This document shows, one piece after another, positions 24,028 to 50,201 of a stretch of 64,000 nt of DNA; the first letter of the stretch is position 1; each line of letters opens with the position of its first letter. The notes under the pieces are model-generated. The model searched no databases. It was not told where the DNA came from and worked only from the letters and a program-made list of their open reading frames with translations. A program made the position numbers and the translations under genes. This stretch comes from Octopus sinensis. Lineage: Eukaryota. The stretch spans positions 165,292,001 through 165,356,000 of the forward strand of contig NC_042998.1 of the NCBI RefSeq assembly GCF_006345805.1, given 5' to 3'.

Positions 24028-25051
24028 ATCTAGAATGACTTTACCTATTTCTGTTTCAAAAGATTAAACAACCAAATCTACAATAAAATAACGATATTTG
24101 CTGCTTTAAAGTGAAATAATTGAGAAGGTATTTAAAGTTTCTGTAGGTATTTAAAGTTTCTTTTGGTGGAATATTTTAAAAAGTATCCACGGCCTTGGTT
24201 ACTGAAAACTAAAAACCTATTTCTACTGACTAAAGCAATATTTTACTATTATACACACACCCTCGCATACATATACTCACTAACCTGTGAGCGCTTTTCG
24301 ACCGATATCAAACGTATATGTTTCTGTGATTGCTTAGTAAATCACACCATGGAAATTCTGTTTAGCACATTATCCTCCAGTATTTGAATGGTCTTTAATT
24401 TTCTCAAATGTGAGGATACAAATAATATTTTATGGTTTTCGTGTGACTACATATACATATACATACCACAGCCTAAACAGAAATACGAAGACCTGCCATT
24501 TGTTTGGAACATACGTGAAAGACCGATGCAATGTCGGCTCATCTTGTACATTATCGATTCAAATAAACACCGTGTAATATTTTCGAGGCCATAGCGACAC
24601 ACATGAATACTTTTTAATATTTTTTTCTAAAATTAAGACGAGTAATAAATAAAATATAAAAAGAAATTAGCTGAACAACACAGATTTCTTCGACAATCCA
24701 CTACAACCGCTAACTCACATCACAATGTTTCCTCAGTTTTCCTTTTCTATTATACTGAACTTATTGTCTGTATATACAGCTAACAGGTAGATAAATATAA
24801 TATTTGAGCAAGAATGGAGAGCAAGGCGGCGAGCTGTCAGAAACGTTAGCACGCCGGGCGAAATACATAGCGGTATTTCAGCTGCCGCACATGTGTTCGT
24901 GAAGTAAGAATTGCTGTTTCGTGGTGTTAATATTGTTAACAACTGTTGTTTCTTGTTAAACTGTTGAATAACTTAACTGTTGGAGTTTTCAATTGAAAAC
25001 ACTTAGTGCTTGTGGTAGCACGCGTTGTTCATTCCCCCTTTGGGGGGAAGA

Positions 25052-26582
25052 ATGTCGTCTAGCATGGAGCCTACCGTTGGAGCAGAAATACTTGTTTCTC
25101 CTGTTGAGAGGAGGAAATACATGTCCGGCGAGGAGCCAACTACAGACAAGGAAATAGGGGTTTCCCCCGCTACAAGAAGGAATAGCAGAGAGGATAATAT
25201 ATTTGATATTTTTGGAGATGTGTCTGAGAGCTCGTCAGAACTTTCACCAGAAGAGTTTCCGACTTTGCCAGAGAACAAAGGCATTGTGTCGAAGAGAATA
25301 ATTGATGTGCCTAGCATCCAGATAGAACCAAAAAATGGAAAAAAAAAGTTTTGCGTTGGCTGCTGGGGGTGGAACCCAGATACTGTCGACGAATAAAAGC
25401 GAAATTATGAAATACAGCAAAATGATGGAAATAAATGACAACAGTGTGAAAATTGAACCTCCGCAAAAGTTATTACAGGAAGAAAAGCAAAAAACAATAA
25501 TTTTCAAAACATATTGTCTACAAATTAGAAAAATTGAAAGAATGTCAGAAGAGAAAATAGAAAAGTGCTTAAAGCCAATATTGGGCGACGTAGTATTTCT
25601 GAGAAGAGGAAAAAAATTCGGAACGGTGGAAGTAAGGTTCACCAATAAAGAAATAGCACACAAGAACTCAGTGGAAACGTTGAAAACGAACGACGTGGAG
25701 TTAATACCCTATTATATGGGGATGAGGACGTCGCGAATAAAAATTACAAGGGTCCCGCCAGAGGTCGAACCTATGTGGTTGTTGGCGGCAGTCCTAATCA
25801 AAGAGGTAGAAAAAATTACTCTCCTCCAGGCTACCGCTACGGAAAACCCACGCTGGGATGGTAAAACAATTAATCTTCTCATTCAAGCGGACCCTAAAAT
25901 AATTCAAACAATTCCTGAAACAATTGAGGTAGGGGAGGAGAACCTCGTGGTGTTTGTTGAGGGCCGAAAACCTCGATGTTTTTTATGTGGTCAATTAGGC
26001 CACATTCGAAGGAACTGCAAGGAAAATGAAGAAGAGGAGGAAGAGGAGAAAAAAGACAAAGAGGAAGAAGATAAAGAAGAAACAGATGAGAAAAAAACAA
26101 CAAACAAAAGAAAAATACAACCAGCAACCCAGCCGAGAGCGGCGACTACTACAGAACAACGACCAAAAAAGACTGCCAGAAGAGAAAAAGAAGAAAAAGG
26201 CATAATAGCCGTATACACTAAAGATACTGAGCTCATGAGAGACATTCAACTCATAAAGACTGTAAAAAAAATTGATAACCTTTCAGAGGAATTTATCAAT
26301 TACGACATATATGAAGTCTCAAATAAGACTTATAGAATTCTACAAAATAAGTACAGAAAGACTGTATCTTCATTGAGATTAGATTTTAACAAGTCGATAT
26401 TTCATGGATTACCAGCTCCGATCCCGCGAGAAAAGGAAAAGGTGGAGATTCCCCCTCCACCTGATAATTCTGTGTCGGTGGTGAGACGGGATTTTGACAA
26501 ATCTATTCCCAAGACCGTCCACCTCCGACCCTGGATAAAAAAAAATGTGGAGGGTCCCCCTCCACCGGACAATCCTGATTAA
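25052..26582 (+). pseudogene. Tx1 ORF1 (gag-like, CCHC knuckle), one frameshift in the A9 run at 25339-25347
   Basis: ORFs 25025-25396 and 25335-26582 join; CFLCGQLGHIRRNC knuckle; RRM-like FGTVEVRF. Confidence 0.85.
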
Positions 26583-26593
26583 ACAGGTAAGTG

Positions 26594-29500
26594 ATGGCTA
26601 TTCACATTGGTTGTTTAAATGTTCATGGCCTGTTGTCAAGCTGGAAGCAAGGACGCTTTCTGAATGACATCAGGTCGAGAAATTTGGATGTAATTGTTGC
26701 AACGGAAACCCGGGTGAAGGGGCCAAGAGATCTGCTCCCCCTCCTGAACGGCTACGAGAAATACGTTCTCCGAGTCGGGCGGGAGGTGGGGGTGGGTGTT
26801 GGTCCTACTAAAAAGAAACCGGGTAGCCGAGAAAAAGTTGGTTTTTTCTGACCCAGAAGGCAGGCTGGTCGTTCTCGACTTGACATTCAGTTGTGGCAAG
26901 ACAATCAGGCTGGTCGCTATTTATGCACCAAACATTATTGGCCCGCAAACTGAATATTTTCGTGGCCTAGGAAAGTTCCTAGCCACGTCGCATTCACTAG
27001 TAGTGTTAGGAGACTCTAATACAATATGTGCAGCACACACAGATTGTGTTGGCTCAAACTCGAACATGAACAGAAAATGTAACACAGGCTTTCGGGATCT
27101 GCTAAGTCAATTTCAGCTAGCAGATCCATATAGGTTGGAGCACCCGAACACTCCACAGTGGACGTGGTCAAATAGTGACGGGTCTACCAGAACATATCTA
27201 GATAGGATTTTAATTAGAGAAAAAGATAAGTCCATAGTTGAGTGTCCACAGTTTTTTCTAGTCAGCTACAGTGACCACAAGATGGTTACCTGTAAACTGA
27301 CGGTAGATAAGTTGCATAGACAGGGATCTGGCTACTGGAAACTCAATACGTCCCTTTTGGCGATTGAGGAGTACAGAAAGCGGATCAAGATGTTAATACA
27401 GAGGGCATTAACAGGTACCATCATTAATAACAAATGGTGGTACGCCCTAAAAAGAGCCATCAAATATGAGTCTATTAGGTTTAGCATAAGTTTAGCTAAG
27501 AAGGGACGTAAAATAGGAGATGGTCTAGTTAAGGAACTAGAAGAAGCCTGGAGGACTGGTAATACAGACCAAGCGAGGGTGAAAAGACTGGAGTTAAACC
27601 AGCATCTTGAAGCCCACCACATGGGAAGTATTACCAGAGCTAAGTTACGTGCAATGGGAAGTGAAGGAATCAAAGCCGCTGGATGGGCCCGAGTGGTGGA
27701 AGCTCGGCAAGGAAATAGTTCCTCTATTCGGTCTTTGACGAATCAAAATGGTGTCTTGATAAACGAACCCGAGAAAATGTGTGAGGTCTTTCGGGAGTAC
27801 TTCGCCCAGCTGTTCGGGGGTGACGGCGGTCCTGGTGGTGGGAGAGCCCTCGAGGACTTTCTTACCGGGCTGCCGTGCCTCTCGGGGTCGGATGCGGAGT
27901 CTTGCGAAGGGCCAATCACACTTGAGGAGGTGATGGAGGCTTTGGCCGATTGTAAAGCGGGTAAGTCACCGGGACTTGATGGTCTTCCGTACGAGCTGTA
28001 TAAATGTATGCCAGACTTGTTCGGGCAACTACTGACTGACGTGTACGCGAACTGGAAACGGAATGGGTTTATCCCCAGATCTGTGCGCCGGGGAGTAGTG
28101 ACGTTGGTCAGAAAGGACCCGGACAAGGGGACGTTCTAGAGAATTTCAGGCCCATCACTCTGTTAAACGCAGAAGTGAAGATTTTGGCCAAGGTTCTAGC
28201 AAAAAGGTTGGCGCGTGTCGCGAATGGTATAGTCGGGGAGGCACAGACATGTGCCATCCCAGGCAGAACCATTCAGGATACCCTCCATCTTATTCGCTAT
28301 ACCATAGAGAGGTTTGGTAATAAATCTGGCAAAGGTGGGGCATTGGTGCATTTGGACCAGTCTAAAGCTTTTGATAGGGTTGACCATCGATACCTAGCGA
28401 CTGTACTTGCGCGGTTTGGCCTGGGCCTTGGCTTCCTCAGGTGGTTTATCGCTTTGTACCACAACATTGACTCGATAGTTCGGGTGAACGGTTTCCTTTC
28501 GAAGCCGTTCTGCATCAGACGCTCGGTTCGTCAAGGATGTCCGCTTTCACCACTTTTGTATGTGATGGCTCTCGAGCCATTACTGCAAAGGTTGAGTGGC
28601 ATCCCGAGAGAACCAGGACTAGAGGAGTTTGTTACGGCTTTCGCGGATGATATCACTATCAGTGTAACCACAGTGGTACGCCTACGTGAAGTAGGTAAGA
28701 CTATTGAGGCTTACGAGGAGGTAGCAGGAGCAAAGATTAACCGGGAAAAGTCGGTCGGCTTGCAGCTCGGCACCTGGGTTGGCAAGTCGATGCCTTCAGA
28801 CAGTGTTGTTAGGCGCTGGACGGAGGGACCGGTTAAGTTGCTGGGAGTCTGGTTTGGACCAGGCCTCCAGATAGAGAAGAACTGGACGGAGGTATTGAGC
28901 AGGGTGGCTGCAGTAGTCAAGACTTGGTCTTGGCGGTGGCTATCCCTGAAGGGAGGGCGGAAGTGGCCAATGTGTTTATCGCATCGGTCATTACCTACCG
29001 CCTGACTGTCGTGCCCTGTCCGGATTCGTGGTTGATCAGGTTGGAGAGACAGCTCTTTCGCTTTTTGTGGAAGGGCAGGTCGCCACTTGTGAAACGCTCT
29101 GTCTGCTGTCAAAAGCCTTTAAATGGAGGTTTAGGGATGCCTTGGTTAATGATGCGCAGACATGCGTTGAGGTTGAGGCACCTCTGGATTCTCCTGGATA
29201 GTGAACGGGTGTGGTCTCCGCTGGCCAGACAAATGTTCCTGAGTTCAAGAGTTTTTGCGAACAGGAAGCCTGGTGTTCTTGTAGACCGAGGTCGAGTGAG
29301 TGGCATAAAGAGTGCCGTAAGGCCCTCTTGCTGTTCCGGCGCTCGGGCAACGCCAGCGGTGGGGGTTCCACACGGATTTTATATAGTGGGTTGGTAGAGT
29401 CTGAATGCGACGATGGCCTGGGGTCGACTCTAGGTCTCGGATTTATTCAACTGGACAGCTTGTTTCATCGTACATTCGGGTTGAGAACGTTGGACAACTT

Positions 29501-29990
29501 CCAGAAGTCCTTAACCTGGCAATGCTACAGAGGTGCCTTGCCCGTTTGGGATAAGCTCGCAAGACATGGTAAACGTCAGTCGCCGACCTGTCCAAGATGC
29601 GGTGGGGACAAGGAAACCGTCCCTCACGCTATTGTTCAGTGTCCGGAGATAACTGAAATGTGGGCTTATGCTGAACATCTGTTGTCCGGCGAAGGAAGAG
29701 TACGGCTGTCGACTGAGTCAATTATAAAAATTGACCCACCGGGAGTTCTAACGAACGAAGGTAAGAATTGTTTTCTCACGGTTGTAGCAATAGCAAAAGA
29801 GGCTGTATGGAATACTAGGATAAAAGGAATTAAGACAGGCAACTTTATCTCTGGTGACAATTTACGATCCTTTTTTTCTTTTCATTTGAAAAGGAAACTG
29901 TGGCTGGAGAAGAGGTGTCTGTCAGAGTGTACGTTCCAAAAGAGATGGAAGTATGTTGCACGAGTGTTGTGCGTGCAAGGAACCGTGTGA
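26594..29990 (+). pseudogene. Tx1 ORF2 (APE endonuclease, RT, C-terminal Zn finger), four frameshifts
   Basis: LNVHGL, ATET, IYAPN, GDSN, YLDRIL, SDH; KSPGLDGLP, LDQSKAFDRVDH, RQGCPLSP, FADD; CPRC..H...C; shifts near 26780, 28130, 28955, 29237. Confidence 0.92.
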
Positions 29991-31033
29991 ATAGACGAGG
30001 AAAAAAAATAAAAAGGTATCAGCGGTAGATCGGGGCTTGTGGGATCGGAGCGTAACTTGATCATCGCTTCATTTGTATTGTTTTTGTACTGTGTATTCCA
30101 TTCGATTTTTATGTATTGTATTTTATTTTTGATGTCACATTTATGTAAAATCATATCGATTCACTGATCCCATCAGTTGTACTGTCCATATCTATGTTTG
30201 GCCCCCGGTGGGCAATAAAGAAATTGGTATTTCGTCCTCCGCTACATTCTGAGTTCAAATTCCGCCGAGGTCGACTTTGCCTTTCATCCTTTCGGGGTCG
30301 ATAAAATAAGTATCAGTTATGCACTGGGGGCGATATTATCGACTTAATCCGTTTGTCAATCCTTGTTTGTCTCCTCTTTGTGTAGCCCCTTGTGGTCAGT
30401 AAAGAAATAAGAATGGAAATTCTGAGGGACGATATTTTGTTTGACAGATTTGCTTGGAGAGAGACATTAGCGATATTATGAGAGATCGAACTTGCTAATA
30501 AGGGAGACAAGTCAGTCTGACGCAAGATTTAATTTTCATAACCCTCCAAATGACTTCAACAATTTTGTTGTAAGATTTTTACAAAGAATTATGATTTAGT
30601 CACAAACTCGAAGACTTGAGGCATTATTAGTTCAAGAAGAACTGTCAGTTAAAACAAAAGAAAAAAAAGAAAGAAAAACGTAAAACTTGCTTGAACCAGC
30701 GAATAGTACAATTAAGACGATGAGTAGCATACGCTAAGCTTTGACAGATTTGAACTAAAATATTTAGTTACAAAGATCTAGTTACAGCTTTGTTTTATTG
30801 TCTGTGGCTTTGGACCAAAGGGATTGTTAATTAGCAGCAATAGGAAGTAAGGTAACGACAAATCAACGCAGTTTTGGCATTTCAATTAAAAGGTTGTTTA
30901 AATTATATCTAAAAAAATGGATGAATAAATGATAAAAGAATATTGAAGTGGGAAAAGAGGAGATTGGTGGGAGAATAGTGAGGAAGAAGAATGAAAAATT
31001 ATGTGAAATGCTAAAAGGTACACACACACAAAC

Positions 31034-31108
<75 letters not shown>

Positions 31109-31394
31109 ATATATATATATATTATATATATATATAAATTAAATAATAAGGGTAGAAATTGATATTAATCAACTAAAACCGGTGGCTTAGCGTATTTTAA
31201 AAAATCCGATTTAAAAATTGTGTTACATACAAAATTTAGAGGAATGACCACTAAAGGGGAAACCCTATATGCTAAACATAGACGTCATATCGCTATTACC
31301 ACGAAGAATGTGTTTTCAAGAAAAATCTCAGTAAAAAAACAAAATGTAAAAATAAGCAAGACAAATGAAAATATACGAAATAAAAAACTATTAC

Positions 31395-31468
31395 CTAGGT
31401 ACCATTGATTTCACTTGTTAATATTTACGTATATGAACACGAAAATATCTGCAAGATCATCAGCATAG
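31395..31468 (-). ncRNA. Hammerhead motif with enlarged stem II in a PLE-like remnant next to (TA)n
   Basis: Minus: CTATG-CTGATGA-tCTTG...CAAGt-GAAAT-caatg-GTA-CCTAG; stem I 4/5 paired. Confidence 0.55.
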
Positions 31469-31599
31469 TCTGTCGTTTACAAAACATTATTTCCAGAACT
31501 AGATACAGAACGCTCATCCGAAATTGAGCATGTATAAAGTTCTACTATTATATATTTGGGTGTATCTTTCAAATGCTTTGACTTTGGCATTTCGCATTT

Positions 31600-34500
31600 C
31601 GGCTGATATTGGCATTTCGCAGAACTCCTCATCCATGGTTGAGAGGCGTGGCATGCCACTAAGATAGGAGGTGAAATCCATCACCGTCCCAGAACCACCA
31701 CGCACCCATGCACTTCGGTGAAGTACCGCTGAAATTCCGCACACATCTGCTTAGACTCGGTTATCATGCACCCATCACAGATCGCCTAAGCCCGAAATGT
31801 TGCTTTGTTTCCACGCAGCGCCTCTGCATCCGGGCCCATAAAACGCTTTTGTCCCCTCCCATTTCAGTGCATACGCTTTAGTTCTAACAATGCAACCTCC
31901 GTGCTTGGCGTTGAAGAATTGATCAAGAGCCAATCTCGTCGCTAGCACGTCGGTCGCTGTGCTCTTCCTAAGCGCTTCTTCTAACGTCCTAACTTAGTCT
32001 CCCCCTCTCCTAGATTCCTCTAACGGTATTTCCTAACTAAAAACTACCGCCTCTAATCTAATAATCCTTTTCAGGGTTATCTACCATCTGCTTTTGACGA
32101 TCGCACTCGCCAAATTCCGATGCGCTAACTTGGTAACCCGGTCTCTGAAAGCTTGGGAAGGACGTGTTCATCTTCCAGTATCCGGGGCCCAGTCTATGGA
32201 TCCTATCTATGTCGACTGTACAAATCACAAATTTATGGTCCATATAGCCGACGACTTTGAAACATGGACAATTTATATTACTTCTATCTACAGGCCTACA
32301 AATTACTCTATCTTGATACGATCTGGAAGACCAGACGTGGTTCATTCATGTCCACATTGGCGCATTCGGAAAATCCAGTAAGTTCCTGTCATCCAACAGG
32401 AAGCGACTGAGCAGTTTTGTGAGGTTTTTACTCCTCCTCTCCTGTCAACTAACAATAAAGGGCGTGACGTCCCAAGGAAAACCTCCAAACATCTGGAGAA
32501 ATCTGGCTTCCCCACCCCCTTGGGGTCATAAACAGCGACTAGACTAAAGGCATCACCTTCACTGTCGCTCAGGCCCAGGACTTACCCTCCGGGTCCAGGA
32601 AGATCGTCCGAACTTCGAGAAACAGGCCTTTCCTAAACAGCATTGCTACCGCCTCCCATTCTGGGCCGACTAAGAGATGCGTAGAACACACAGTCGTCGA
32701 AAATGTGTGCAAGATCGCGTGTGTCGGAAAGCCTGGTCTCACTGGCTGCAATCAGATCCAAACCTAGCGACCTGAGGTCATTGAGCAAGCGACCTTGCTT
32801 CCAGGGCGACCTCAGGCCGCGAACATTTATGCAGCCTATTCTGAAAATCACCATGACGGCTCGAAAGGGTTGAAGAAAAGAGAAAAAGAGCGGGGTTACA
32901 TACCCTCCTGGATCTGGTAGTAGCCTGATAACCAGGGCTCTGGATCTGGTTCCTCTGGGAAACCGGCTAAAAGCCTGTTCGTGGCGCAGACGTTTGGCCT
33001 TTCTACGTCATGCTGGAAATCCCTCTGAATTTCTTTGTGTTTAGAGGTGTAGCCAAATTAGCATTAAGTGATCCGGAATGTTAAGGGTGCTGGTGTCGTA
33101 AATTGCACCTTCTGTCTGAATCTCCTTGTTACTGGCTATGGGAGCCAACAAATTTTTGTTGGCTCTCCTCATGAGCACATAATTCAATGTTTCCGTATTG
33201 ATGACTGTGAACTTTGTTTTGGGGTCTACATGTGGTTGTGAGTGTTTTGGTGGATTTGGTTGGGGTAGTGGTGATTTTGGTGCTGTTGTTGTTTTTGCCG
33301 TCTATGTCCTATGTGCAGGGGGTTTCAGTGCTTTCAGTGTTAGTGTAGGTTCGTCTTCTTTATCTTTTGTCTTAAGGTTTTTTTGCTTTTGCCTTGTAGC
33401 GTTTTTTCTCATCTTCCCTACTGGATGAAGAGGAAGTAGTGTCTGTAGGATTTGCCTCGGGGAGAATGACTGTGTTTGTGGCAGTATTAGCATGTTGGTG
33501 TGATTGTATGATTGAGAAAGAGGGCAAAGAAGGCTGGTTTGACAGATACTCTGAGTGGTTTCCTCCATCCAATGGGATTCACATGTTTCGGTTGTTGTTG
33601 GAGATGAAGCTACCGTTTTATTAAAATGTCTCTGTTGTTGCTGTTGCTATTGTTGAAAGTGCAATGTAGGTTGCAGGTCTAGCCACGTACTTCCCAAATT
33701 TTGGGGGTAAGAAGCTCTCAGGTGGCTTATGGTCCCAGAGAAGTCGCATCTGGGCTTCTTGTCTTCCACGACAACAAGCAATTCCCCCTTGTTGGGTAGC
33801 TGGATAAGGTCCGAGATTTTCTCGATATTTCCTGGTTTCACATGGATTAATATTTCCAAGTTGATCCCACAGCAGTTCTCCCTGCTGCTCCTTTTTACCT
33901 CCAGGAGTGATTCTGAGCCGTGCACCACACAGGTGACAATCCATCTGACGTTTGCTCCTGGTGGCACATCATTTACACTAATTCTGGTCGTCCAATTTCA
34001 GAAGTAGGAGGATGCAGGACCCACTCCTCAGTCCATCGGCGTGGCACTGCGTTTCTTTGCGAGAGGTCCTTACTTTTAAAGAAGAACTCAATGCTGGCAA
34101 ATTCCCCTCACTCCGTATATGGACCACATCTATTAAAGTTTCTCTGAGGGCCTTCTCAGCATGACTGATGGAGGCTATTTCAACTGGTCTACTTTTGCAG
34201 GATTCGCATCTGAAGTATACTGTCTTCTTTTTTGCCTCTATTATTTCGGTAGGTACGAACACTGCAGCCTTACCCCGCTCAGACTTAATGATGTCTTTCG
34301 CTTTTGAGAGTTCAGGAGTTTTGTCATCGAGTGCGATAGCAAACATTTCTCTCTTTGAGTTCACTACCTCAGCAAACCTTTTATTTTTGTTATTGTCTTT
34401 GTTGTTGTCGTCGTCGTTGCTGTTGTTATCGTTGTTGTTACTGCTGCTGCTGCTGTTCGTGGTGATGGAGTTGTGGCCACTTTCACCGTTATCGCTATTT

Positions 34501-35090
34501 CCCTCCACTCCGCCTTCAACTGTAGGATTATTTTTTCCGCTAAAATCCGTAGCAGTGTTAACGAAACTGCTGTCTCTGCGGTTATTGTCACTGCCACTGA
34601 TGCTGCTGCCCTTGCCGCTTCTCGCGTTGTAGTAGCTACCACTACTACTACTGTAGCTGCTGCCGCTGTTAGGGTCACAGCTACCACTACTGTTGTCAAT
34701 GTTGCCACTGGTGTACTTTGTACTTTTCTGCCTCCCTTTTTCCCCTCCTCTCCTGTATTGTGGCCTGTAATGGAGGGACAGGGAAGGGAAATCTTCAGCA
34801 GTCACTAGACCTGCGGGAGATATAGTTTTTTCTTAACTTTTTCAAGATGCGCCCCACTCATCTTGTTGAATTGTATATGATTAAACAACCACCGAACTTA
34901 CTTGGTGGGCAGAATATAGCCCCGTAAGGGGCCAAACAAACACAGAAACCCAGTGACAAGTTCTTGGTGTTTCTATTAACAACTTGGAACAAAATATAAA
35001 CCGAAAAAACGGCAGCAAACGGGTGTAAACAATTGTTTTCAAAAGAACTTACTTGGAGGGTTCAAAAACACGTCCGATGCACTCCGCAGC
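31600..35090 (-). mobile_element. 3'-truncated, decayed Tx1-clade element (element 2): 5'UTR, ORF1, APE domain and tether
   Basis: IGCINVRGLRSPWKQGRLLNDLRS (32633-32854), LDPEGK, YMDHK, GPGYWKMNTS, CEMPISAE; ORF1 pieces VVVEDKKPRC; homologous to element 1. Confidence 0.88.
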
Positions 35091-35102
35091 AAATACAATA
35101 AA

Positions 35103-35148
<46 letters not shown>

Positions 35149-35150
35149 TA

Positions 35151-35352
35151 ACCCTTTTAACCAAAAGAATAAGACCTGAAATTTGGTGGGAGGGGACTAG
35201 TCGATTACATCGACCCCAATGTTTAACTGGTACTTAATTTATTGATTTGGAAAGGATGAAAGGTAAAGTCGACCACAGCGGAATTTGAACTCAGAACTAA
35301 TGGCCGCTAAGCATTTTGCCTAGAGTGCTAAGGATTCTGCCAGCTCGTAGCC

Positions 35353-35387
<35 letters not shown>

Positions 35388-35794
35388 CCTTCCTATCATA
35401 GGCACAAGACCTGAAATTTGGAGGTAGAGGTTAAATCGATTATATCAACCCCGAAAGGAAGTAAGGCAAAGTTGACTTCGGCGGAATTTGAACCCAGAAC
35501 GTGTAGACAGACGAAATACCGCTAGGCATTTCGCCCGGCATGCTAACGACTCTGCCAGCTCACCGACTTATAATAATAATAACCCCTTCTACTAAAGGCA
35601 CAAAGCCTGAAATTTTGAGGAGGGGACTAATCGATTACATCGACTCCGGTATTTCACTGGTACTTAATTTTTCGACCCAGAAAGGATGAAAAGTAAAGTC
35701 GACGTCGGCGGAATTTGAACTTAGAACGTCGTGACGGGCGAATTACCGCTCAGCATTTCGTCCGGCGCGCTAACGATTCTGTCAGTTCACCGCC

Positions 35795-35829
<35 letters not shown>

Positions 35830-36040
35830 CTTTTCATTTAAAGGTACAAGGCCTGAAATGTGTGGGAGAGGCCTGAAATGTGTGGGTTGATTGCATCAAC
35901 CGCAGTGAATCACTGGTACTCAAAGGATGAAATTCAAAGTTGAACTTATCGGTATTTGGACTCAGAACAAATTTGAACTCAGAACAAAAGGCCGCCAAGC
36001 ACTTTGCCCGGTGTGCTAACGATTTTGCCAGTTCGCCGCC

Positions 36041-36042
<2 letters not shown>
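35151..36042 (-). mobile_element. Head-to-tail array of four SINE family A copies (tail B) separated by (AAT)n
   Basis: Copies at ~35151-35354, 35387-35570, 35583-35796, 35829-36042. Confidence 0.88.
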
Positions 36043-36088
<46 letters not shown>

Positions 36089-38245: not shown

Positions 38246-38896
38246 TTTTATTCATTTAATTCATGGCGTTTTCAGGTACTCCTATTAAGCATGATGACAC
38301 TAATGTTCCTTTTGAACCTCCAAATTCAATACCAGCAGGGAAAATATGAGCAAGGAGAGAACTGCACACGACTGACGTTCTGTGAAAGAAGTAATTGATA
38401 TAGTAATTAGTGCGGAGCCTATAAGTTGGGACAAAAGAGTGATGAGCATTGGAAAGACGAGTGGAATAGGAATGCTTTGCGTATAGATGATACAAGCACA
38501 GCCACCTTAATGGCGGAAAGGTAATTATAGCAGACTTAGAAAAGACAGAGCTGTGTATCAGAGACTGTAGCGTATCGGTGTGTGATTTTACGCGAAGTGA
38601 AAAGAATGGTAACATTAAATGCAAACTACATAGCTGGGACCAAGAAAATATTGGCCACATCACTATTGACTGACCAGTCCTTGCAGAATCCGAGAATATT
38701 CAGAGACACGATTGGGTTTTTAGCTAGACTAGACAAAGCCCACAATTCATACATACTCTATAGAAATTCTACCCAATAATATAGCACTAGATATAATCTT
38801 CAGTAGTGTCGTACAAACTTTTCACAAAATTCAAGAAAACGTTAGCGATACCAAATTTATATTTACATCTAATTACGCTCTTATATATCACATTAT

Positions 38897-39105
38897 GTGG
38901 CGAGCTGGCCAAATAGGTTAGCACACCGGGCAAAATGCTTAACATTTCATCCAGCTTTGTGTCCTGAGTTCAAATTCCGCTGAGGTCAACGTTACCTCTC
39001 ATCATTTCGGGGTCAATGGAATAAGTATCAGTCGAGCATTGAGGTTGATGTAATAAACTAGCCCGCTTCCAACAAATTTCAGACCTTTACCTTTTGTAGA
39101 AAAAG
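38897..39105 (+). mobile_element. SINE family A (tail B)
   Basis: GGCGAGCTGG..GAGTTCAAATTCCGC..AAATTTCAGACCTT. Confidence 0.8.
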
Positions 39106-39705
39106 TTACGCAAATGTAGAAAACGAAGAATAAAAACTTACATTTAACTGACTTAAATTATCTTATGTGAAAAGAAGAATGTGACTTTGTTAGTATTATG
39201 AAGCTTGCAATGGACCAACAAAGTTTTGGTAGGGTCTACTGGTAGACTACCAGGGTAACGTCGAGAATCCTTCTATAATGTCGTTGCCAAACAATATAAC
39301 ACAAAACATACTCTTTACAATCAACTCTCAATAATAACACATTCTCTACAAAACAACCATTAAACAATGTATTACAAACCACAGAAAACATATCGCTCAC
39401 AATCAGTACCTACCATATCTGGATACATCTCAGTCAACAACGACTCCCTACTTGAATGGCCGATCATACCACAAAACTTGATTTGGCCGAAAATATCTAA
39501 GTTATCGAAGTTATAATAACACAGCACTTACATAACCGATATCAGATGGTATACTATCAACAACTCATACAATTCTGTATGAGTGTTACCAACTAATACA
39601 ATAGAATACAAACGGTACAATTTCTTAATCATCGTTCGACGCTAAAACACGTCACATCAGTCACATAGTTCTTATGAAATACAAACACCTCTAAATACTT
39701 TAACG

Positions 39706-39944
39706 CAATGGTTCTCAACGATTTTTTGCTTATGGACCCCTTGATTCTTGTTTTCCTCAACTTGACCTCTATAGCGATTCGATGTATATATCAAAAAAAA
39801 TCCTATTGAATTTTTGTAATTAAATATTATTTGAAATTGTATAAAAAGACTAAAATATTTTGTGTATTGTAGAAGTATAACTAATTTATTGCACATAAAC
39901 CTTAACAGCAAAATCTTATGTGGACCCCAGTTAAGAACCACTTG
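39706..39944. mobile_element. hAT MITE related to 23706-24027
   Basis: CAATGGTTCTCAAC ... GTTAAGAACCACTTG termini with GGACCCC motifs. Confidence 0.65.
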
Positions 39945-41944
39945 TTTAACAGGAAAACTTAAACAAATATATGTTTATCGCCAGCTGGTTATAGATGACA
40001 TCTGCACCCGATATATATATTGCAAGCATGGGAGCGAACCCCTACCATTCTCTACAGACGACAGAAGATTTTCTAACTAGAGACTTTGCTTAAACAAATA
40101 GAAATATCTAGAAAAAGAAAAAGCGGTTCTGTAGATTGAAAACAGAAAAAAATTCTCTAATAATAGTTGCCTTACAAATTTTTTTTTAAATGCACCGGTA
40201 AATACAAAGCAAAAATTACCTGAGCTACACATATATACAAAATAGAGAAAATAACATTACTAGGCACTGTACACGTGTTGCATAGAGTATTTTCAATACA
40301 GCAGAATTCAGAACGACTGAAAAAAATACTGCACGTACCCAAGGCACACAGAGATGCACTCGATAGTGCTGTGAAAGCATGCAATTAAAAAATACTGCTG
40401 AAAAATAATATTAATGATCCGGAATTGGTCAATTAGTTCTTAATTATTTGGCCGTCTCATTCAATTGATTATAGAGTTATTTTTTGTTCAATCATCAAAA
40501 AATCCTACAAAGAAAAAATACATAAATGTATATTTGATAAAAAGAAATAATAAAGCATAAATAAATGCTTTGGATACTTAAGAGTTGGCGGAAGGGTGAC
40601 AGAGAAAACGGAATGCTTTAGTTGAATAGAAAAGGTTTCTGGGAGGAATGTGGCTAGTCAGTGAGTTGGGGGGAAAGTTTGCAAATGGAAAGAAACAGGT
40701 TAGAATCATTAGAAACAGCACGCAAAAGAGAAAGGAAATAAAGTGTAGATTGAAGGAAATAAGTTATTTTCTCTATTTTGTATGTACTTGTAGCTCAGGT
40801 AATTTTTGTTTTGTATTTACCAGTTTTACTGGTAGTTCTGTTTAATGTTTGATGTGATTGGGTTAATGTTTATCTCATTGTACCATACAGAAAACATAGA
40901 AATAAAATAGATAGTAAGAGGATGAAGAGAGAGAAGAGGACATAGAAGGAATTGAAGGCGATAGAAATGTTTACAAACAAGGAAGATGTGTGCGTGCGTG
41001 TATATGTGTGTGAGAGAGAGAGAGAGAAAGCGGGGTGAGGGGATTGTGTATGAAAATAAGAATAATATCGAACGGAATGATGACTGGAAATATAGGATGG
41101 ATATAATGTATAGGGTCATTCAGAAGGGATTTCCCTTGCTTTGTCATAGGTTTTGAACAGAGCCCTTCCTATCTAGATTAACAAGGAAATTAAACATTGT
41201 TAACAGAATGACGAATAGAATAAGGAAGATCGTGCCTACAATAAAGTATTGAATAATAGATAAGGATAAGAAATAGAATGAATGAGTCAATATAATTCTG
41301 GGTAAAATAACGTAACTACTTCAATAAATATATGAGAAAGGTTATACAAGAAGGATTTGGAGTTATAGAATTAATGGAATTAGATTCTAGCTGTATTCTA
41401 TTTTTTCCCTAATCTTTTATAAGTTTCATTCAATGAAATAAGGTCCTGCTGGGACATCGCCTTCAGAGAGTTTTGCCGATTGTAGCAACTTAAATACTTT
41501 TTTTTAAAGGGATATAATCGAGGTGAATCTGAATACGACACTGTGTTTTGGTCGTCGCTGTGCCATTTCCGCTACCACTGAGAGCATTAACAATGGAAAA
41601 GGAAAGAAACACTGACATTAACAAGGTAAGACTCCATGTATAATGTAGACCTACATGTTTCATCTGAAGATATATTTTCTAAATGAAAAAACAAGAATAG
41701 TGGACTTCATTGGTTTCATGAAACTTGCTGTGGATCAACAAAGCTTAAATAAGGATTATTGCTAGATAACTTAGGTGACGTCATGAATTGCAGCTCAACA
41801 AAATTGTTATCAATCAATATCACACTACATACTCTTTACAATCAGCTCACAATGACCACCAAATAACATAATACAACCCACACAACAAAATCTCCACACA
41901 ATCATCACCCAATCAACACCATCATCACCCAATCAACACCACAC

Positions 41945-42135
41945 AGGTGGTGAGTTGGCAGAATCGCTAAGCACTCCGAGAAAAACGCTCAGCGACTTTT
42001 CGTCCGTCTTTCTGAGTTCAAATTCAGCCGAGGTCAACTTTGCTTTTCATACTTTCGGGGTCGATAAGATAAGTAACAGTTGACTAGTGGGGTCGATGTA
42101 ATCGACTTACCTCTCCCCCAAAATATGAAACTAAT
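41945..42135 (+). mobile_element. SINE family A
   Basis: Head, B box and core present. Confidence 0.8.
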
Positions 42136-42226
42136 ATAATAACATCCCATGTAGTCGTACTTAATATCTGATCGTATTACACCAACATTCCACACAATTC
42201 ACATTTTCTACGTCTGTCATCAACAT

Positions 42227-43160
42227 CAGCGCTTCTTAAACTATGGGTCGCGAAAATTAAATTCAAATACTTAAATTTCAGTTTATATCTTATTTCACAA
42301 ATTTCAGTTTATATGTTATTTCTGAAATTTTATTGCATGTTCTTTTGTCATTTAGCACCAAATACCTATGTGAAACGACTTTTTCAGCTTTAACACTTAT
42401 TAAAGCCAAATATCGTTCAATGCTGAAAAACTTAGAAGATGCTTGACGTCCAGCAGTGTCATGTATTAAACCAAGGTTTAATTTGTCATGCAGCAAAAAG
42501 CAAGCACATCCGTCACATTTATTTTTAATTTTGTTTGTTTTATTTTTTATTTTTGTACTTGAAACATTTCTTTGGTTTATTTTTGTACTTGAAACAAATC
42601 CTAGAACTACTTTTGGATCTTTTCGGTTTGAACGGCAGTTTTTTAAAATAATTTCCACGTAACTAAAAAAATTAAAACTTCGTATACGGGTAGAATGTGT
42701 TTATAAAACATCTTTTTCTCTTGGCTTTATTGAGAAAATTCTATCGTTTGTAAGATATTTGTTGTTTTTTTCCTTCAATTTCTGCAATTTCAACCAATCA
42801 ATGACGTCTATTGAGGTGAAAACATTCTGTGCCGTATGAATATGTCCCTCGTTTAAGAAACAGATTGCGTTTATTTACATTTCTGAAGAAAAAAAGATAC
42901 CTTTCCCCACACCCCTAACCCTAAAACAGATTGAAATGCAATAGATCGATACTAGGGTCATAATTATGGGTGACAATTTCATATGACACCGCTAGAAAAA
43001 ACTGCCGTTCAAACCGAAAAGATCCATTACTTTTTTTATATGTATATTGTTCAGCAAAAAAAAAAAAATGTTTTATGTATTGTATGTTTTATTTCATATT
43101 TAATACCTGGAGTCGTGATAAAAATCAGGTCATGAATGAAAAAAGTTTTAAGAAACGCTG
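42227..43160 (+). mobile_element. Internally deleted hAT Buster/Charlie transposon retaining the transposase C-terminus (42333-42518)
   Basis: TIRs CAGCGCTTCTTAAACT / AGTTTTAAGAAACGCTG, TSD ATCAACAT/ATCTACAT; LLSFSTKYLCETTFSALTLIKAKYRS..KQAHPSH. Confidence 0.88.
42615..43025. mobile_element. MITE with 30-bp perfect TIRs and 9-bp TSD (Merlin- or Mutator-like), nested in the hAT
   Basis: GGATCTTTTCGGTTTGAACGGCAGTTTTTT / AAAAAACTGCCGTTCAAACCGAAAAGATCC; TSD ACTACTTTT/ATTACTTTT. Confidence 0.85.
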
Positions 43161-43321
43161 ATCTACATGGTCACGGAAGGAAGGCTTTTTATCCTATATC
43201 TGCTCGATCAAAGTAGACCTGTACCTAAACAATAGCAAAAGCAGAATTCTTTTACTTACACAAATGTGAAAGATTTTTACGAATTTTTGCTATATCTTAA
43301 TATATGTAAAAGAGAAGGAAG

Positions 43322-43537
43322 ATGGTGAGCCTGCCGAATCTTTAGTGCACCGGGAAAATGCATAGCGGCATTTCTTTCGACTTTACGTTCTAAATCCGAA
43401 TGCTGCCGGGATAGACATTGTGATTCATCTCTTTGTGGGGTCGATAAAATAAGTACCAATTCTTCTCTGGTGGGGTCGATGTAAGTGACTTATCTCATCC
43501 CCAGAAATTGCTGGCCTTGTGCCAAATTTGAAATCAA
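43322..43537 (+). mobile_element. SINE family A (tail C)
   Basis: GGGGTCGATAAAATAAGTACC core; tail C. Confidence 0.8.
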
Positions 43538-43936
43538 TGTATGTAAAAGAGAATGCAAGTGTACATGTTCCAGTTGAAGGCACCACCATGTACTTGAAAC
43601 CCTGCAAAAGGGGTACATCTGACATGAAAGTCTTAGGGTATGTAACTTTTCCTGATAGATTTCTATAAAGCTAGGCAAGGCTAGGTACCGCTGCTAATTT
43701 TAAATAAATATGATACGTTTGTGCGTAAAGAAGGAGAAATATATAGTCAAGCAGAAACACTAACAAAAATAATATTAAAAAATAATGATAAATAATCGAC
43801 CAGTTCTTTTGATTGTTAAATGAAAACAAAAATGCATAGAGATTTCACGGATATATAATTTTATATACACAAAGATAACTCGAGATATATTAAGATAGGA
43901 TCATTGAACTACTTTTCAGTTTTAGCAAATTTATAG

Positions 43937-45200
43937 GTGGTGAGCTGGGAAAATTGTTGAAACGTTCGGAAAAATGTATAATGCTATTTTCTCCAGCTCC
44001 TTACATTCAGAGTTCAAATTTGCTGGTTTCATACCGAGATTAGAAACAATCTTAGTTCACTGATCGGTAAAATTATTACAGTATCACCCTGGAAATATTT
44101 AGTGTCGGTAAGACAATGGGCTGGTAGAACGCTTAACATTTCGTCCGACTTCACGTTCCAAGTTCAAATTCCGGTGAGGTTTACGTTGCCTTTCCTTCTT
44201 TCAGAGTCGACAGAATAGGTACCACTTGAGGACTGAGGTTGCTGGGGGGGGGGGGTAATTAACTTAGTCCTTTCTCTGAAATTGCTGACCTTATGCCAAA
44301 ATTTGAAACCAATATTTAGTTAGAGTTATTTACAGTCTAAGTTTAAATCCTAGGGTCAAATAAATATCATTAAAGATATTTGAGTTATTTACATTCCATG
44401 CCTCCACCAGAAGTTTTGTCTTTCTGCCTGTGTTGGAGAGCAACTGTGCTAAGTTATTAAACTACGGTCAATAGATTCTCAAATCATCAACCGAAATATC
44501 TTGTATAAATTAGTTAATAGCTTTTTACATTCTAAGTTCAAATTTTGCCAAGGCGAACTTTAATTTTTCTAGGTCCAATAGAATCAACTATTACTGTTAA
44601 GTTTTATCTCGTTGATTATACACTTTCTACAAATTTGAATCATTGAGTCTATATCAGAAATCAATAACAGCACAATTAATTTGTTTCCAGATTGCCCTCA
44701 GATTCACTAAGAACAAGTAAATATTTTTTAATGTTCAGTGGTTTGGAATGAGACTAAGAAAAAAATTGACTACAAAATAAACCAAGCTTGAATATTGATA
44801 AATTTGTCAGGTTCTTTACGTGTAAAATATTGATTCTAAACTTTGGCACAATGCCAGCAATTTCGGGAGAGACACTAAGTCAATTACTCAATCTCAGTAC
44901 TCAAATGGTACTTATTTTATCGACCCCGAAAGGATGAAAGGCAAAGACAACCACGGCGGAATTTGATCTCGGCATTTCACCCGGATTTTTCCAGTTCCCG
45001 TATAATATTTAGGGAAAGATGCTAAAAACACAACTTTTATGAATAAAGAGTAAACAAAAATCTTTTAACATGGCAAAACTGGTGATGATTCAACAAGAAG
45101 GTGGTGAATTAGCAGCTGTTATAGCGTCTTACACTATTTTATCCGGCTCTCTACGTTCCTCAGTTCCAATCCTGCCTAAGCTAGCTTTACATTTCATCAC
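43937..45200. mobile_element. Cluster of diverged SINE family A copies and fragments (e.g. 44118-44313 plus, 44832-45000 minus)
   Basis: Repeated AGTTCAAAT B boxes, core and tail C motifs. Confidence 0.65.
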
Positions 45201-45556
45201 TTTTGGTCGATAAATACTTTGAAGTTACAGGAATCATTTTCTCATTTTCACACCTTAATCTTGAATTGAAAAGTAGCAGTGGAGACTTGTGGCGTTCTCG
45301 GCCCCCCGTACTATGTCCCCGCTCACTGTTGTCGGGGCGGAGATTGTTATCCGCAAGTGCTAGCCCCGTGAGTCAGAGTGGCTGTTCCAGTACATCTCCC
45401 TCGTCATCCCCTGGGACTATGCCTTTTCCATTGTGTCTGCTGCGACCATGAAGCGGATTGAATTACAGGGAATCGAGAGACTGCAAGAAGTTCGTAACTT
45501 ACTACACGAACACTAAAAGTAAGCATTAATGACTTGTAGGTACACTACATTTCGTT

Positions 45557-45753
45557 ATGCAACCACAATATGCTACAAAGTATATTAAACACTTTTATAA
45601 GCTAATATGTTCTACTGTGTTAGCAGTGCTATTAAATCACTTGCTAATGTTATCTTTACTTAACAAAAGATTCAGTAGTACTGCTAACACAGTAGAACAC
45701 AGCAATTGTTTATAAGAGCGTTTGATATATTTCGTAGTATATTAAGGTAGCAG
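45557..45753. repeat. ~200-bp imperfect palindrome (foldback MITE-like)
   Basis: TGTTCTACTGTGTTAGCAGT vs ACTGCTAACACAGTAGAACA, with similarity extending outward on both arms. Confidence 0.75.
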
Positions 45754-45843
45754 TATAGATAACCTTAAAAATTATAAAATTAAGGAAATATATTCCAATT
45801 TGAAATTGGGAAGCAAACTGTAAACTAGTATTGAAACCGTTCA

Positions 45844-46077
45844 TAAGGCGGCGAGCTGGTAGAAACGTTAGCACACCGGGCGAAATGCTTTGCGGTATTT
45901 CGTCGGTCGTTACGTTCTGAGTTTAAATTCTGCCGAGGTCGACTTTGCCTTTCATCCTTTCGGGGTCGATAAATTAAGTACCAGTTACGCACTGGGGTTG
46001 ATGTAATCGACTTAATCCGCTTGTCTGTTCTTGTTTGTCCCCTCTGTGTTTAGCCCCTTGTGGGTAGTAAAGAAATA
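45844..46077 (+). mobile_element. Near-consensus SINE family A (Tx1-type tail A) with 15-bp TSD
   Basis: Full head/core/tail; TSD AGTATTGAAACCGTT (45827-45841) / AGTATTGAAATCGTT (46078-46092). Confidence 0.92.
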
Positions 46078-46092
46078 AGTATTGAAATCGTT

Positions 46093-47682
46093 GTTTCTTT
46101 CTTTATTGCCCACAAGAGGCCCACACAGAAGGGACAACATAAAATAAAATTAAACGTATAATAAGATGAATGATAACATGAAAATGATAATGAAAATGTG
46201 CTGCTTGCACCACCTCAAGCAGCATCACTTCCTTGGTAATCCTTTTACTACATATACAACACATTCCTCTAATAGTTGTTCATACCCTATGCTGTCTGGT
46301 ATCCTTTTAGCGTCTGTATTGATTTTCCAGAACTTATAACCTTTTTTTCTATTTCCTCACTTCTTCTATCTGCTTTTCTGAAACTAGCACACACATGTGC
46401 CACCCTATTGTGTTCGTATATCCTTTTGTATCGACAAATTTTGCCGTCTTCCAATCTGTTACTTTCCGAATTAGTTCCTTATTCTCTTTGTTCGTCAATA
46501 TACAAACGTAATTTACTTCGCGGGGAGGGGAATTCTTTGTACTTTGTTGTAATTGCATTTCTTTTTGGATTGAGTAGGGGGGATGTATGTGGGTTCGGTG
46601 TTTGTGGGGAGAGGGTGGGTCTGAGATTGTATGGGTGGGGTGGGTAAGGTTTGGGGTTCCAAATCACTCTGTCCTTTCTTCCTCTTTTTCCTTCTTTCTT
46701 CTGAAATTATCCATGCTTCCTCTCTTTCCTTTTCCTCTTCTTGCTTCTTTTCCGGCCTCACGTCCATCCTTTCTGAAGTCTGCTTCTGCAGAAGACAGTG
46801 TGCTTTAATGTGGCTTTCTTGGCCACATTTAAAACACTGAGGAGTCCTGCCCTCCACCCACACTTTCAACACTACACCTCCGACTGATACCGCTTCCACC
46901 AAACAATCCAGTGCTTCCACCGCGGCCTGCACAACCAGATCCACTGCTTAGAGCTTCCAAATCAAGCCCACCGCCCATGTGACCTGGAGGATGGCCACTT
47001 TCTCCCCACCTCCCAGAAGAACAGCCGATGCGACCCAAGCCACATCTACCTCCGGTGGTACTCCCTCTACCCCAATCATGGAAGTCCCTCTTCCAAACAA
47101 GTGGGTAGAAGGACTATCTTGCCCGATTTTACCGTGTCCATAGCGAGCTCCCCTGCCCTAACCTCCGTCCTGAAATGGACTACAATAGCTCCGAATTCAC
47201 CTCCTCCGGTCAGTTACGCTATGTCCCACCAGACCGAGCACAACGCCCTTTCCATAATTTCAGCTTCTACATGTTCCACCTTCCCCTCCTCCACCGAGTA
47301 CACCCTGTATACCACAGTCTTCCAGTCCACTATCTTCTGTGGCGGTGACAGCTCAACGTCACTACCCACTCCACATACCACCTCCTCACATCCTTCAACA
47401 TTTGAAAGGACTACCTCCCCTTTGCCCACCTCTGTAGAACTTCCCCTCCCCAGGCACCTATCTATCCCATCGACAGCGAGTACCAGCTCCTCCTCCGAAG
47501 ACGACAACTCGGAACCACCAAGGTCCGATCAAAACATCCTTTTTGCCATGGCTATCTTTCGAAAAAATCGAGAGAAAGCACAAGAAAACCGCTGCAAAGC
47601 AGCACAAAACAACCAACAATTCAAACAGCAGCAACTCCAAACAACAATCAAACCTCAGCCCACCAGAATGCTCGACGAAATT
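46093..47682 (-). mobile_element. ORF1-only Tx1-derived non-autonomous element (element 3), frameshifted
   Basis: PPQKIVDWKTVVYRVY, VWVEGRTPQCFKCGQESHIKAHC; 3' end GGCCTCTTGTGGGCAATAAAGAAAGAAAC; 23-bp repeat TGTAAACTAGTATTGAAACCGTT at 45819-45841 and 47683-47705; no ORF2 sequence. Confidence 0.85.
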
Positions 47683-48153
47683 TGTAAACTAGTATTGAAA
47701 CCGTTATTGCATGTATGGAGAGACACGGCGTTTTTATTATGAGTGGGCTGCAATATGTAAATGAAGTAATAAATTATTGACATTCGAGAATCTCATGGTA
47801 ATTGTTAATCTGTGATTGTTTCTTTAATATGTAAATTAATGACTTTGCTGTCGAAAATCTTATTATTATATTTCATATTAAATATCATATTATTTAAATT
47901 CTATGATATCATTGATTAAGAAAAATTTATTGTTTGAGGCAAGTTCATTAATTGTGGACATTATAATGAGAGAAATTCATACATTTCAAACTTGTTTTTT
48001 TTTATCACTGCATACACATAGATTTTCCATATGAGCACATTTGATTACATCAGTAGGATACAATCAAAATATTTTGAAGCACTCATTCTCAGGACAAAAA
48101 TATAATATATTATCCTTAATACAGCTGCAACAAAAGCTATATTGCAACCACTC

Positions 48154-48497
48154 AAGGCGGCGAGCTGGCAGAAACGTTAGCACGTCGGGCGAAATACTTA
48201 GCAGTATTTCGTCTGCAGTTACGTTGTGAGTTCTTGTTTGTCCCCTCTATGTTTAGCCCCTTGTGGGTAATAAAGAAATAAGAAACGTTAGCACGCCGGG
48301 TGAAATGCGTGGCCGTATTTCGTCTGCCGTTACGTTCTGAGTTCAAATTCTGCCGAGGTCAACTTTGCCTTTCATCTTTTCGGGGTCGATAAATTAAGTA
48401 CCAGTTGCGCACTGGGGTCGATGTAATTGACTTAATCCGTTTGTCTGTCCTTGTTTGTCCTCTCTGTGTTTAACCCCTTGTGGGTAGTAAAGAAATA
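48154..48497 (+). mobile_element. Dimeric/nested SINE family A (two tail A ends) with 17-bp TSD
   Basis: TSD TATATTGCAACCACTCA on both sides; internally deleted first unit ends AAAGAAATA at 48280, second unit restarts at AGAAACGTTAGC. Confidence 0.88.
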
Positions 48498-50089: not shown

Positions 50090-50201
50090 ACCAGCCACAT
50101 GGCTTCAGCTTCAGTGACACCATGGGCAAGTATCTTCTACTATAATTCGACCAAAGCCTTGTGAGTGGACTTGGTAGGTGGAAGCTGAAAGAAGCCTGTC
50201 G

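Follow-up and report, generated by a model that had tools for sequence, protein, structure and literature searches.

The stretch of DNA described here, called the window below, comprises 64,000 nucleotides of the Octopus sinensis genome (assembly GCF_006345805.1, contig NC_042998.1, positions 165,292,001 to 165,356,000 of the forward strand). It holds a long interspersed nuclear element (LINE) of L1/Tx1 type, which we call family A, several copies of a short interspersed nuclear element (SINE), and an element that encodes only a homologue of the first open reading frame (ORF) of the LINE. All three end in the same 3' tail, and the LINE sits at a fixed site inside the SINE. SINE positions (1-232) are numbered after the full copy at 45846-46077, and genome-wide counts refer to an assembly of 2.72 Gb. 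The features of the window are the following.

24823-24889, forward strand: head of a host SINE, positions 1 to about 65, 89% identical to SINE positions 1-57; an equal junction is found in 39 other copies.
24890-30225, forward strand: full-length L1/Tx1-type LINE, family A, 5.34 kb, with 98-99.5% identity to 39 other copies.
25052-26582, forward strand: ORF1 of the LINE, 509 amino acids in intact copies, with one CCHC zinc knuckle.
26594-29990, forward strand: ORF2 of the LINE, 1133 amino acids in intact copies, with APE endonuclease, reverse transcriptase (RT) and C-terminal zf-RVT domains.
30177-30225, forward strand: 3' tail of the LINE with a putative 4-bp hairpin at 30201-30213 and the terminus AAAGAAATT, without poly(A).
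30226-30409, forward strand: remainder of the host SINE, positions 49-232, with its own tail at 30385-30408.
45846-46077, forward strand: full-length tailed SINE, 232 bp, with a 15-bp target-site duplication (45827-45841 / 46078-46092).
46095-47682, reverse strand: older ORF1-only element of about 1.6 kb with a decayed ORF1 and the shared tail at 46095-46140.
48154-48497, forward strand: SINE dimer, made of an internally deleted SINE (48154-48280) and SINE positions 16-232 (48281-48497).
63800-64000, reverse strand: tailed SINE (tail 63962-64000, truncated by the end of the window), joined to an older sibling SINE (63961-63800) at position 49 of the latter; the sibling bears a different tail.

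Self-comparison matches 24823-24889 to SINE positions 1 to about 65 and 30226-30409 to positions 49-232, and the LINE between them therefore interrupts a SINE. The last 17 or so nucleotides of the upstream part are the 5' copy of a target-site duplication whose 3' copy opens the downstream part, and a 9-bp direct repeat (24810-24818 / 30409-30417) brackets the LINE-bearing host SINE. The distal part of the 5' copy is probably the LINE's own target-like 5' end. The sequence-only reading of the window, made without database searches, had started the LINE at 24823, where the head of the host SINE lies; the LINE proper runs from about 24890 to 30225. It had also taken 30385-30408 for a separate, diverged SINE copy, but this is the host's own tail, since 30226-30409 is the rest of the host. 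The site-specific insertion of the LINE inside the SINE was missed altogether. The window LINE is disrupted by frameshifts and stops.

The same arrangement recurs throughout the family. With the 496 nt before the tail as query, the best 40 of 1107 candidates were taken as the top set, and the insertion site is SINE position 49-65 in 40/40 of them. The tail is followed by SINE position 49/50 in all 30 of the top loci returned. A SINE head precedes the LINE in 38 of the 39 top copies outside the window by BLAST, and partly, by eye, in the 39th; all 39 start at LINE base 1-3, and the LINE is unbroken in 38 of them and internally deleted in one. Two of the copies (L066 and L098) are likely an assembly duplicate. 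Among LINE copies taken by position, a set that overlaps the top-copy sets, 27 of 28 lie at SINE 49-51 and the 28th is degenerate; these came from the first 30 LINE-type tails, the other two being SINEs. Within the SINE head there is a palindrome, whose 3' arm contains the site at position 49.

Across the 40 copies, pairwise identity reaches 99.5-99.8% within the LINE; for the flanking SINE parts it is 86.7% (head) and 88.5% (body), compared with 89.9% among 26 control SINEs. Because the LINEs are nearly identical while their flanks are as diverse as free SINEs, the host SINEs are independent targets. A C/G variant at SINE position 49 is concordant across the insertion in 39/40 copies (Fisher p 1.2e-9), and the target-site duplication at family A insertions is genuine. 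These data bear on the alternative that the LINE and its two flanking SINE halves move as a composite, by capture of a 5' head and 3' transduction, with no targeting. Such a unit would suit the young copies, which with few exceptions are full length and have the same flanks, as well as several old truncated copies that have SINE body downstream and no head upstream. It is contradicted by the diversity of the flanks and by the concordance at position 49. It also conflicts with truncated copies in which the head is present at variable truncation points (the SINE head lies right at the truncation point in the 5'-truncated L276, L283, L298 and L305), and with hosts that are an older SINE with another tail. 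We give this explanation next to no credence; a composite unit or 3' transduction is refuted for the young family, and a few old copies may have moved in that way.

Between positions 56 and 66, most variants seen in the 5' copy disagree with the 3' copy. The variant at position 62 tracks the internal haplotype of the LINE (p 0.003, best of 7 columns) and not the 3' copy, so the LINE seems to start with its own copy of the target. In 39 further LINE copies, picked as old-type (25) or atypical (14), the 3' neighbour is SINE 49-52 in 31, the 5' end of another LINE in six and something else in two; the six downstream LINEs start with target-like GGTATTGCGTCTG. An older A subfamily, with 79-93% identity to young A and an age that fits that of the SINE, uses the same SINE site. 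Single SINE heads carrying both an element of family B (described below) at position 16 and family A at position 49 occur at L380 and L381, and also at L077 and L083. A young family A copy at L308 (4903-6473) lies in a SINE with a 3.8-kb internal deletion and both ends precise. L278, L284 and L286 hold a recurring family A derivative that lacks the end of ORF1 and the endonuclease and is placed before the 5' end of another LINE, possibly a further non-autonomous subfamily.

The tail was said from the sequence alone to occur at seven places in the window, and all seven are confirmed (30201, 30385, 46053, 46098 on the reverse strand, 48256, 48473 and 63964 on the reverse strand); 100 shuffles gave a mean of 0.00 and a largest of 0. 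It is present in all 79 LINE copies examined (40/40 top copies and 39/39 further ones), although its absence from other copies had been considered as a way in which the window tail might be a stray SINE fragment. The claim that there is no poly(A) also holds: AATAAAGAAATT runs straight into SINE sequence in 39 of 40 LINE copies, and after a 7-nt insert in one. The region common to LINE and SINE spans about 45-50 nt, TGT-CCCCTCTRTGTT(T)RGCCCC..GTGGGYARTAAAGAAA, and exceeds the hairpin. The SINE and family A both have a third T ahead of the hairpin and an extension of 2 nt, T-W; the other autonomous families in the alignment are without these features. The LINE and the SINE are thus partners by a common insertion site as well as by a common tail. 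Two SINEs, L148 and L158, carry the LINE-type loop in their tail, which suggests tail exchange.

Family A proteins have matches above the Pfam cut-off to PF03372, PF00078 and PF13966 in ORF2 and to PF00098 in ORF1, and both ORFs are kept in two of 40 copies. Among solved structures, where few clades are represented, the best relative of ORF2 is human L1 ORF2p (E 2e-64 over 5-867, compared with E 2e-20 for R2). Family A also has two ORFs, a target-site duplication and some 5' truncation, and by these comparisons its ORF2 is L1-clade-like and nearer to L1 than to R2. That much of the earlier placement of ORF2 within Tx1/L1 stands. No named Tx1 reference is among the family A homologues found, the RT trees being made up of unnamed rows and one cuttlefish protein, and the nearest named homologue of the LINE is a cuttlefish protein; the Tx1 label therefore rests on targeting and on general features of the clade. 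Two Tx1 traits are seen, namely a preference for a target sequence and the CCHC zinc knuckle of ORF1, which is typical of Tx1 and unlike mammalian L1. In the RT tree, old and young family A form one clade (support 100/97) apart from the other tail-bearing autonomous families, and a quick tree concurs. Genome-wide there are 151 exact LINE-type tails, 227 3'-UTR motifs (at most 2 mismatches) and 107 young-type 5' ends (at most 1 mismatch); young family A has about 110-150 copies. The LINE at 24890-30190 is present in public runs under four organism labels, and among these public runs no RNA run is on record as containing it. Contigs from four runs cover all 30 bins; being contigs, they are no evidence of transcription, and none of the pieces listed reaches across the entire stretch.

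The SINE, tRNA-like in its head, resembles a SINE2-type element in being short (232 bp), dispersed and high in copy number, with target-site duplications. Abundant octopus SINEs include OK, OR1 and OR2, reportedly described by Ohshima and Okada in 1994, and 'Twilight', any of which may correspond to the present SINE. A- and B-box-like motifs are seen in the head by eye. Compared with 27 tRNA genes of few isotypes, the head gives a best z of 4.9 in one old-tail copy and 1.7-2.7 in three tailed copies. Genome-wide, the exact tail pattern has 113,347 matches, exact tail-to-position-49 junctions number 30,946 and tail-to-position-16 junctions 1,481, with 0 in the reversed controls; the figure of about a quarter of SINE tails at position 49 is approximate, since the search patterns differ slightly. 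The dimer at 48154-48497 is an instance of the position-16 hotspot and has a single outer 16-bp duplication. Among 59 tailed SINEs of full length, 19 have a SINE site just downstream and 40 do not. Duplications of 9-24 bp were found in 24 of 40 solo SINEs, and eight of these start with GGTA or GGTT. Read-through as the source of GGTA after solo SINEs was rejected where a duplication was found, as GGTA stands upstream too. Antisense solo SINEs in SINEs occur in the flanks of L085, L162, L187 and L283, at a recurring body site with a duplication starting GGTAC/GTAC, possibly a third hotspot.

Repeated SINE-in-SINE junctions give arrays of the form [1-232][49-232]n. These could in principle come from tandem duplication, unequal exchange or read-through dimers, with no targeted insertion. 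No second head is stacked before a full unit ([1-65][1-232][49-232]) among 363 clusters, which speaks for that view, and only three T follow the tail, so that RNA polymerase III might read through. Against it, units of the same array share no more than about 91% identity (11 pairs), and in many cases they belong to different families (83%, 6 pairs). Array boundaries coincide with both LINE target sites, and in the arrays at L127, L112 and L079 private variants are duplicated on both sides of the incoming SINE. We therefore regard these sources as a very unlikely origin of the arrays and favour targeted insertion. The last array units are mutually unrelated (mean 82% for 5 old-tail and 90% for 8 tailed units). 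SINE targets include the older sibling SINE, which has the same head and body and a different, (ATT)n-ended tail. It is found in the window at 35119-36042 and 63800-63961 (both reverse strand) and at about 15 more places, with tandem runs, and agrees in head and body to about position 175. This is a tail swap, with the other tail probably coming from another LINE partner, perhaps an RTE-like one.

Family A is not the only autonomous carrier of the tail. At least three autonomous families bear it and have different targets; other autonomous families, with 71-75% identity to family A, have other sequence downstream of the tail. The element at 46095-47682 (reverse strand), as proposed earlier, encodes only an ORF1 homologue, 28-39% identical to the ORF1 of the LINE, with no ORF2 match. 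It has a 23-bp duplication (45819-45841 / 47683-47705), the left copy of which is split by the SINE. Its family is dispersed, with 72 candidates 66-90% alike, and shows HAL1-like traits: recurrent full-length copies, an ORF1, no ORF2, a LINE-type 3' end and a lineage of its own. The ORF1 sequences cluster, one group (support 84) taking in 18 of the 19 ORF1-only rows; L199, the one row of this clade labelled autonomous, is an ORF1-only copy that a SINE has split and that lies next to a scrap of an unrelated ORF2. The window element is thus a member of an older HAL1-like lineage, and its origin by deletion of the window LINE was rejected, given the low ORF1 identity and the separate clade. In 20 of 30 loci of this family a tail fell in the searched span, and none of the 20 tails lies at SINE position 49; three are followed by a motif resembling the family's own 5' end. 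A SINE and an ORF1-only element lie tail to tail on opposite strands, about 18-25 bp apart, at two loci (window 46044-46140 and L164), and such pairs may reflect sequential insertion or priming of both strands at one cut. Rfam microRNA matches at 46033-46150 were discarded, as they fall on the two facing tails with scores below gathering.

Position 16 of the SINE has its own set of elements. Among 45 sampled position-16 junctions in 40 loci, the element upstream is a SINE in 42, an ORF1-type element in two and unclassified in one. Family B is a young ORF1-only family of 1.75 kb, 96-99% alike in six units, with an ORF of up to 382 amino acids. It has 127 matches, many of them in dispersed, head-to-tail arrays. 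AGAAAC directly follows 25 of 30 family B matches (11 sites) and represents either SINE position 16 or the 5' end of B that copies it. In a sample of 20 loci, 18 hold family B, and the sequence before the first unit is a SINE head in 10, LINE family C in two and something else in six. Copies of family C are 98.7% alike, and the full-length one lies at SINE position 16. C and B have in common their first 75 nt (88%), their last 32-34 nt (97%) and the position-16 site. With C, B and the SINE all at position 16, a LINE, an ORF1-only element and a SINE do share tail and site, in copies other than those first grouped. Multi-family trains of ORF1-only and autonomous elements, head to tail or in the 3' part of LINEs, are seen at L191, L198, L200 and L208; their insertion motif resembles the core of the SINE target.

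The sequence-only reading had proposed that one RT, that of the window LINE family, recognises the hairpin and mobilises both the SINE and the window ORF1-only element. The tail common to all three, and the hairpin as RNAalifold consensus, are in keeping with this, and the LINE/SINE partnership is upheld by tail and insertion site. The single enzyme is not: the ORF1-only tails are never at position 49 (0/20), where family A nearly always is, at least three autonomous families with different targets bear the tail, and the ORF1s of the ORF1-only elements form their own lineage. The proposal of one RT is largely refuted, and we would be surprised if it proved right. As judged from these sequences, the SINE and the ORF1-only elements likely owe their mobility to a whole clade of L1/Tx1-type LINEs, which would home into the SINE that they amplify.

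Given the observed fixed sites, duplications, shared tails, families, ages, SINE-in-SINE junctions and the joint use of position 16 by C and B, we are fairly confident of the following reading: young family A, with the shared tail, occupies a fixed SINE site at 49-65, and A and its sisters likely supply endonuclease and RT for the SINE and the ORF1-only elements. Several points weigh against it. Mobilisation in trans and tail recognition are inferred from sequence. Only 18 of 26 old-type LINE copies are followed by SINE 49-51, with another LINE's target-like 5' end in six and other sequence in two; most old truncated copies have no upstream SINE head, and no outer duplication was found to account for them. 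Family C is known from two copies only, the second being L423. A search for a tRNA source of the SINE head gave 0 hits with ARAGORN and no tRNA match in Rfam. The hairpin and the relative ages of LINE and SINE raise two further difficulties, each tied to an alternative.

The claim of a conserved 4-bp stem and 5-nt loop stood in part: RNAalifold returns a 4-bp stem as consensus of 21 tails, but the loop sequence differs, being CCGGT in the LINE and CTTGT in the SINE. Covariation of the stem, a check proposed with that claim, is not significant (76-129 of 500 shuffles score equally high, and one of 84 cells changed on both sides), and five tail pieces fold no better than shuffles (z -0.48 to 0.89). 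The tail might thus be kept as a 3'-processing signal, with AATAAA 5-7 nt ahead of the LINE end, or as plain sequence, the hairpin having no part in recognition. A processing signal fits less well with the SINE, which frequently has AGTAAA. In 74 LINE and 145 SINE tails, moreover, the fixed LINE-SINE differences within the 13 nt sit in the loop or turn G-C into G-U, and 94% of hairpin cells are paired against at most 51% in slid registers, though the structure was derived from these same sequences. We consider this alternative doubtful but worth keeping in mind. A 4-bp hairpin is compatible with the data, and its role in recognition is putative.

Young family A, with its 110-150 or so copies against more than 113,000 SINEs, is too young and too small to account for the SINE total, so ancestors or sisters are needed. 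It could then be that family A targets the SINE as a late squatter, and that other tail-sharing families, less specific or extinct, mostly amplified the SINE. Young A copies are 99.7% alike and SINEs about 90%, two thirds of full-length SINEs (40 of 59, a further point against the reading above) lie outside SINEs, and the SINE loop CTTGT agrees with that of the sister families and not with A. On the other hand, about a quarter of SINE tails adjoin the exact site of A, SINE duplications elsewhere often begin with GGTA as the target of A does, an older A subfamily of fitting age exists, and the two tail features noted above are common to SINE and A. Late squatting by family A is improbable on balance, and we retain the reading in which A and its sisters serve the SINE.

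The mechanism we propose for family A and its sisters would run as follows. ORF2p would bind the tail of about 45 nt, in which the 4-bp hairpin may contribute to recognition, and nick the bottom strand just before GGTATTTCGTC (family A) or AGAAACG (family C). Reverse transcription would be primed at the exact end of the element, and the top strand would be cut about 16 nt downstream. The target copy at the 5' end of each element would then pair with the target overhang; this would account for the precision of the 5' junctions, for the large share of full-length copies and for arrays that run head to tail. SINE cDNA, being homologous to the head of its host, would join it by homology, and the resulting [1-232][49-232]n arrays would lack a second head. 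The LINE is strict about its site and the SINE less so, and most SINE copies land at new sites, often starting with GGTA. Each new SINE copy would be a fresh target, and the LINE would multiply its own landing sites. The window ORF1-only element was likely moved by sister families with other targets. An extended version, to which we assign even chances, is a self-feeding community in which sister Tx1-type LINEs split two sites of the SINE head and SINE amplification seeds more than 100,000 safe sites for LINEs, passengers and the SINE itself. The 5' target copies would make integration precise and full-length, the SINE would be host and mutualist of its LINE and not just a parasite, and the loop would be one driver of SINE expansion in the octopus.

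The closest precedent is that of the Tx1-Mar LINEs and SINEU of crocodilians, whose shared preferred sites in Mariner-N4_AMi are read as evidence of trans-mobilisation (Kojima, 2015; PMC4494074). As here, a LINE and a SINE prefer common sites, there are two sites with different families, and SINEs are inserted in tandem. In that system the target is a third element, whereas here it is the partner SINE; SINEU has poly(A) and snRNA heads, and no LINE with the 3' terminus of SINEU-1 was found there, in contrast to the non-poly(A) tail of about 45 nt shared here. The same source lists Xenopus Tx1L in Tx1D, Keno (U2), and Kibi and Koshi (microsatellites) (PMC4494074). These resemble family A as sequence-specific L1-like LINEs with an APE endonuclease and a fixed site in multicopy sequence; as presented there, their targets (DNA transposons, RNA genes, microsatellites) are not amplified by the LINE itself, unlike a partner SINE. 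Stringent LINE/SINE pairs likewise have a common 3' end with a putative stem-loop; Table 1 of Ohshima (2013; PMC3747384) lists 58 SINEs, without target sites, and in that table there is no Tx1 partner and no cephalopod, the L1-clade pairs being maize/sorghum and Chlamydomonas. HAL1, HeT-A and Ag-Sponge are ORF1-only non-autonomous LINEs (PMC5786205, PMC5753468) that have ORF1 only, keep LINE ends and form their own lineages. They differ from family B, which is site-specific for the SINE head, has a 5' target copy and forms dispersed head-to-tail arrays. In Octopus vulgaris, 13 L1-Tx1 families are reported to have been active recently, their 421 insertions covering 2.29 Mb at a mean of about 5.4 kb (PMC13282606); the passages seen give counts and no partner or target. 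Octopus repeat papers give counts of repeat classes in the sections covered (PMC13282606, PMC8967140), and nothing on the present LINE/SINE system appears in the accessible parts of PMC4824008, PMC4758252, PMC3531059, PMC8869645 and PMC13295347. In the literature covered, no description of this LINE-in-own-SINE system was found; the elements may have names in Repbase, in Dfam or in the octopus papers of 1994 and 2015.

Elsewhere in the window, an 81-bp piece at 32749-32829 (reverse strand) matches the beginning of ORF2 at 79% identity. Two open frames, of 284 amino acids at 33978-34832 (reverse strand) and of 205 at 17211-17828, have no Pfam match above the cut-off. Further repeated sequence at 50114-52592 is 68-87% alike and unrelated to the SINE.

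If the reading given here is true, the octopus offers the case of an L1/Tx1-type LINE in an animal that has its stringent tail, free of poly(A), in common with a SINE, and of a LINE whose target is its own SINE; Table 1 of PMC3747384 has no such pairing. Three questions could be put to direct test on the naturally intact, very young copies and on the sister families, whose targets differ: how a template that lacks poly(A) is recognised by an L1-type ORF2p, how specificity changes in APE endonucleases, and whether a 5' target copy leads to precise, full-length integration, which is relevant to tools for site-specific gene insertion. A caution follows for repeat libraries, in which 'dimer SINE families' of the form [1-232][49-232]n are nested insertions. 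Since LINE and SINE share a 3' end and a landing spot, these LINEs likely multiply the repeat they land in, and they would be a candidate for what drives a major SINE family in this SINE-rich genome.

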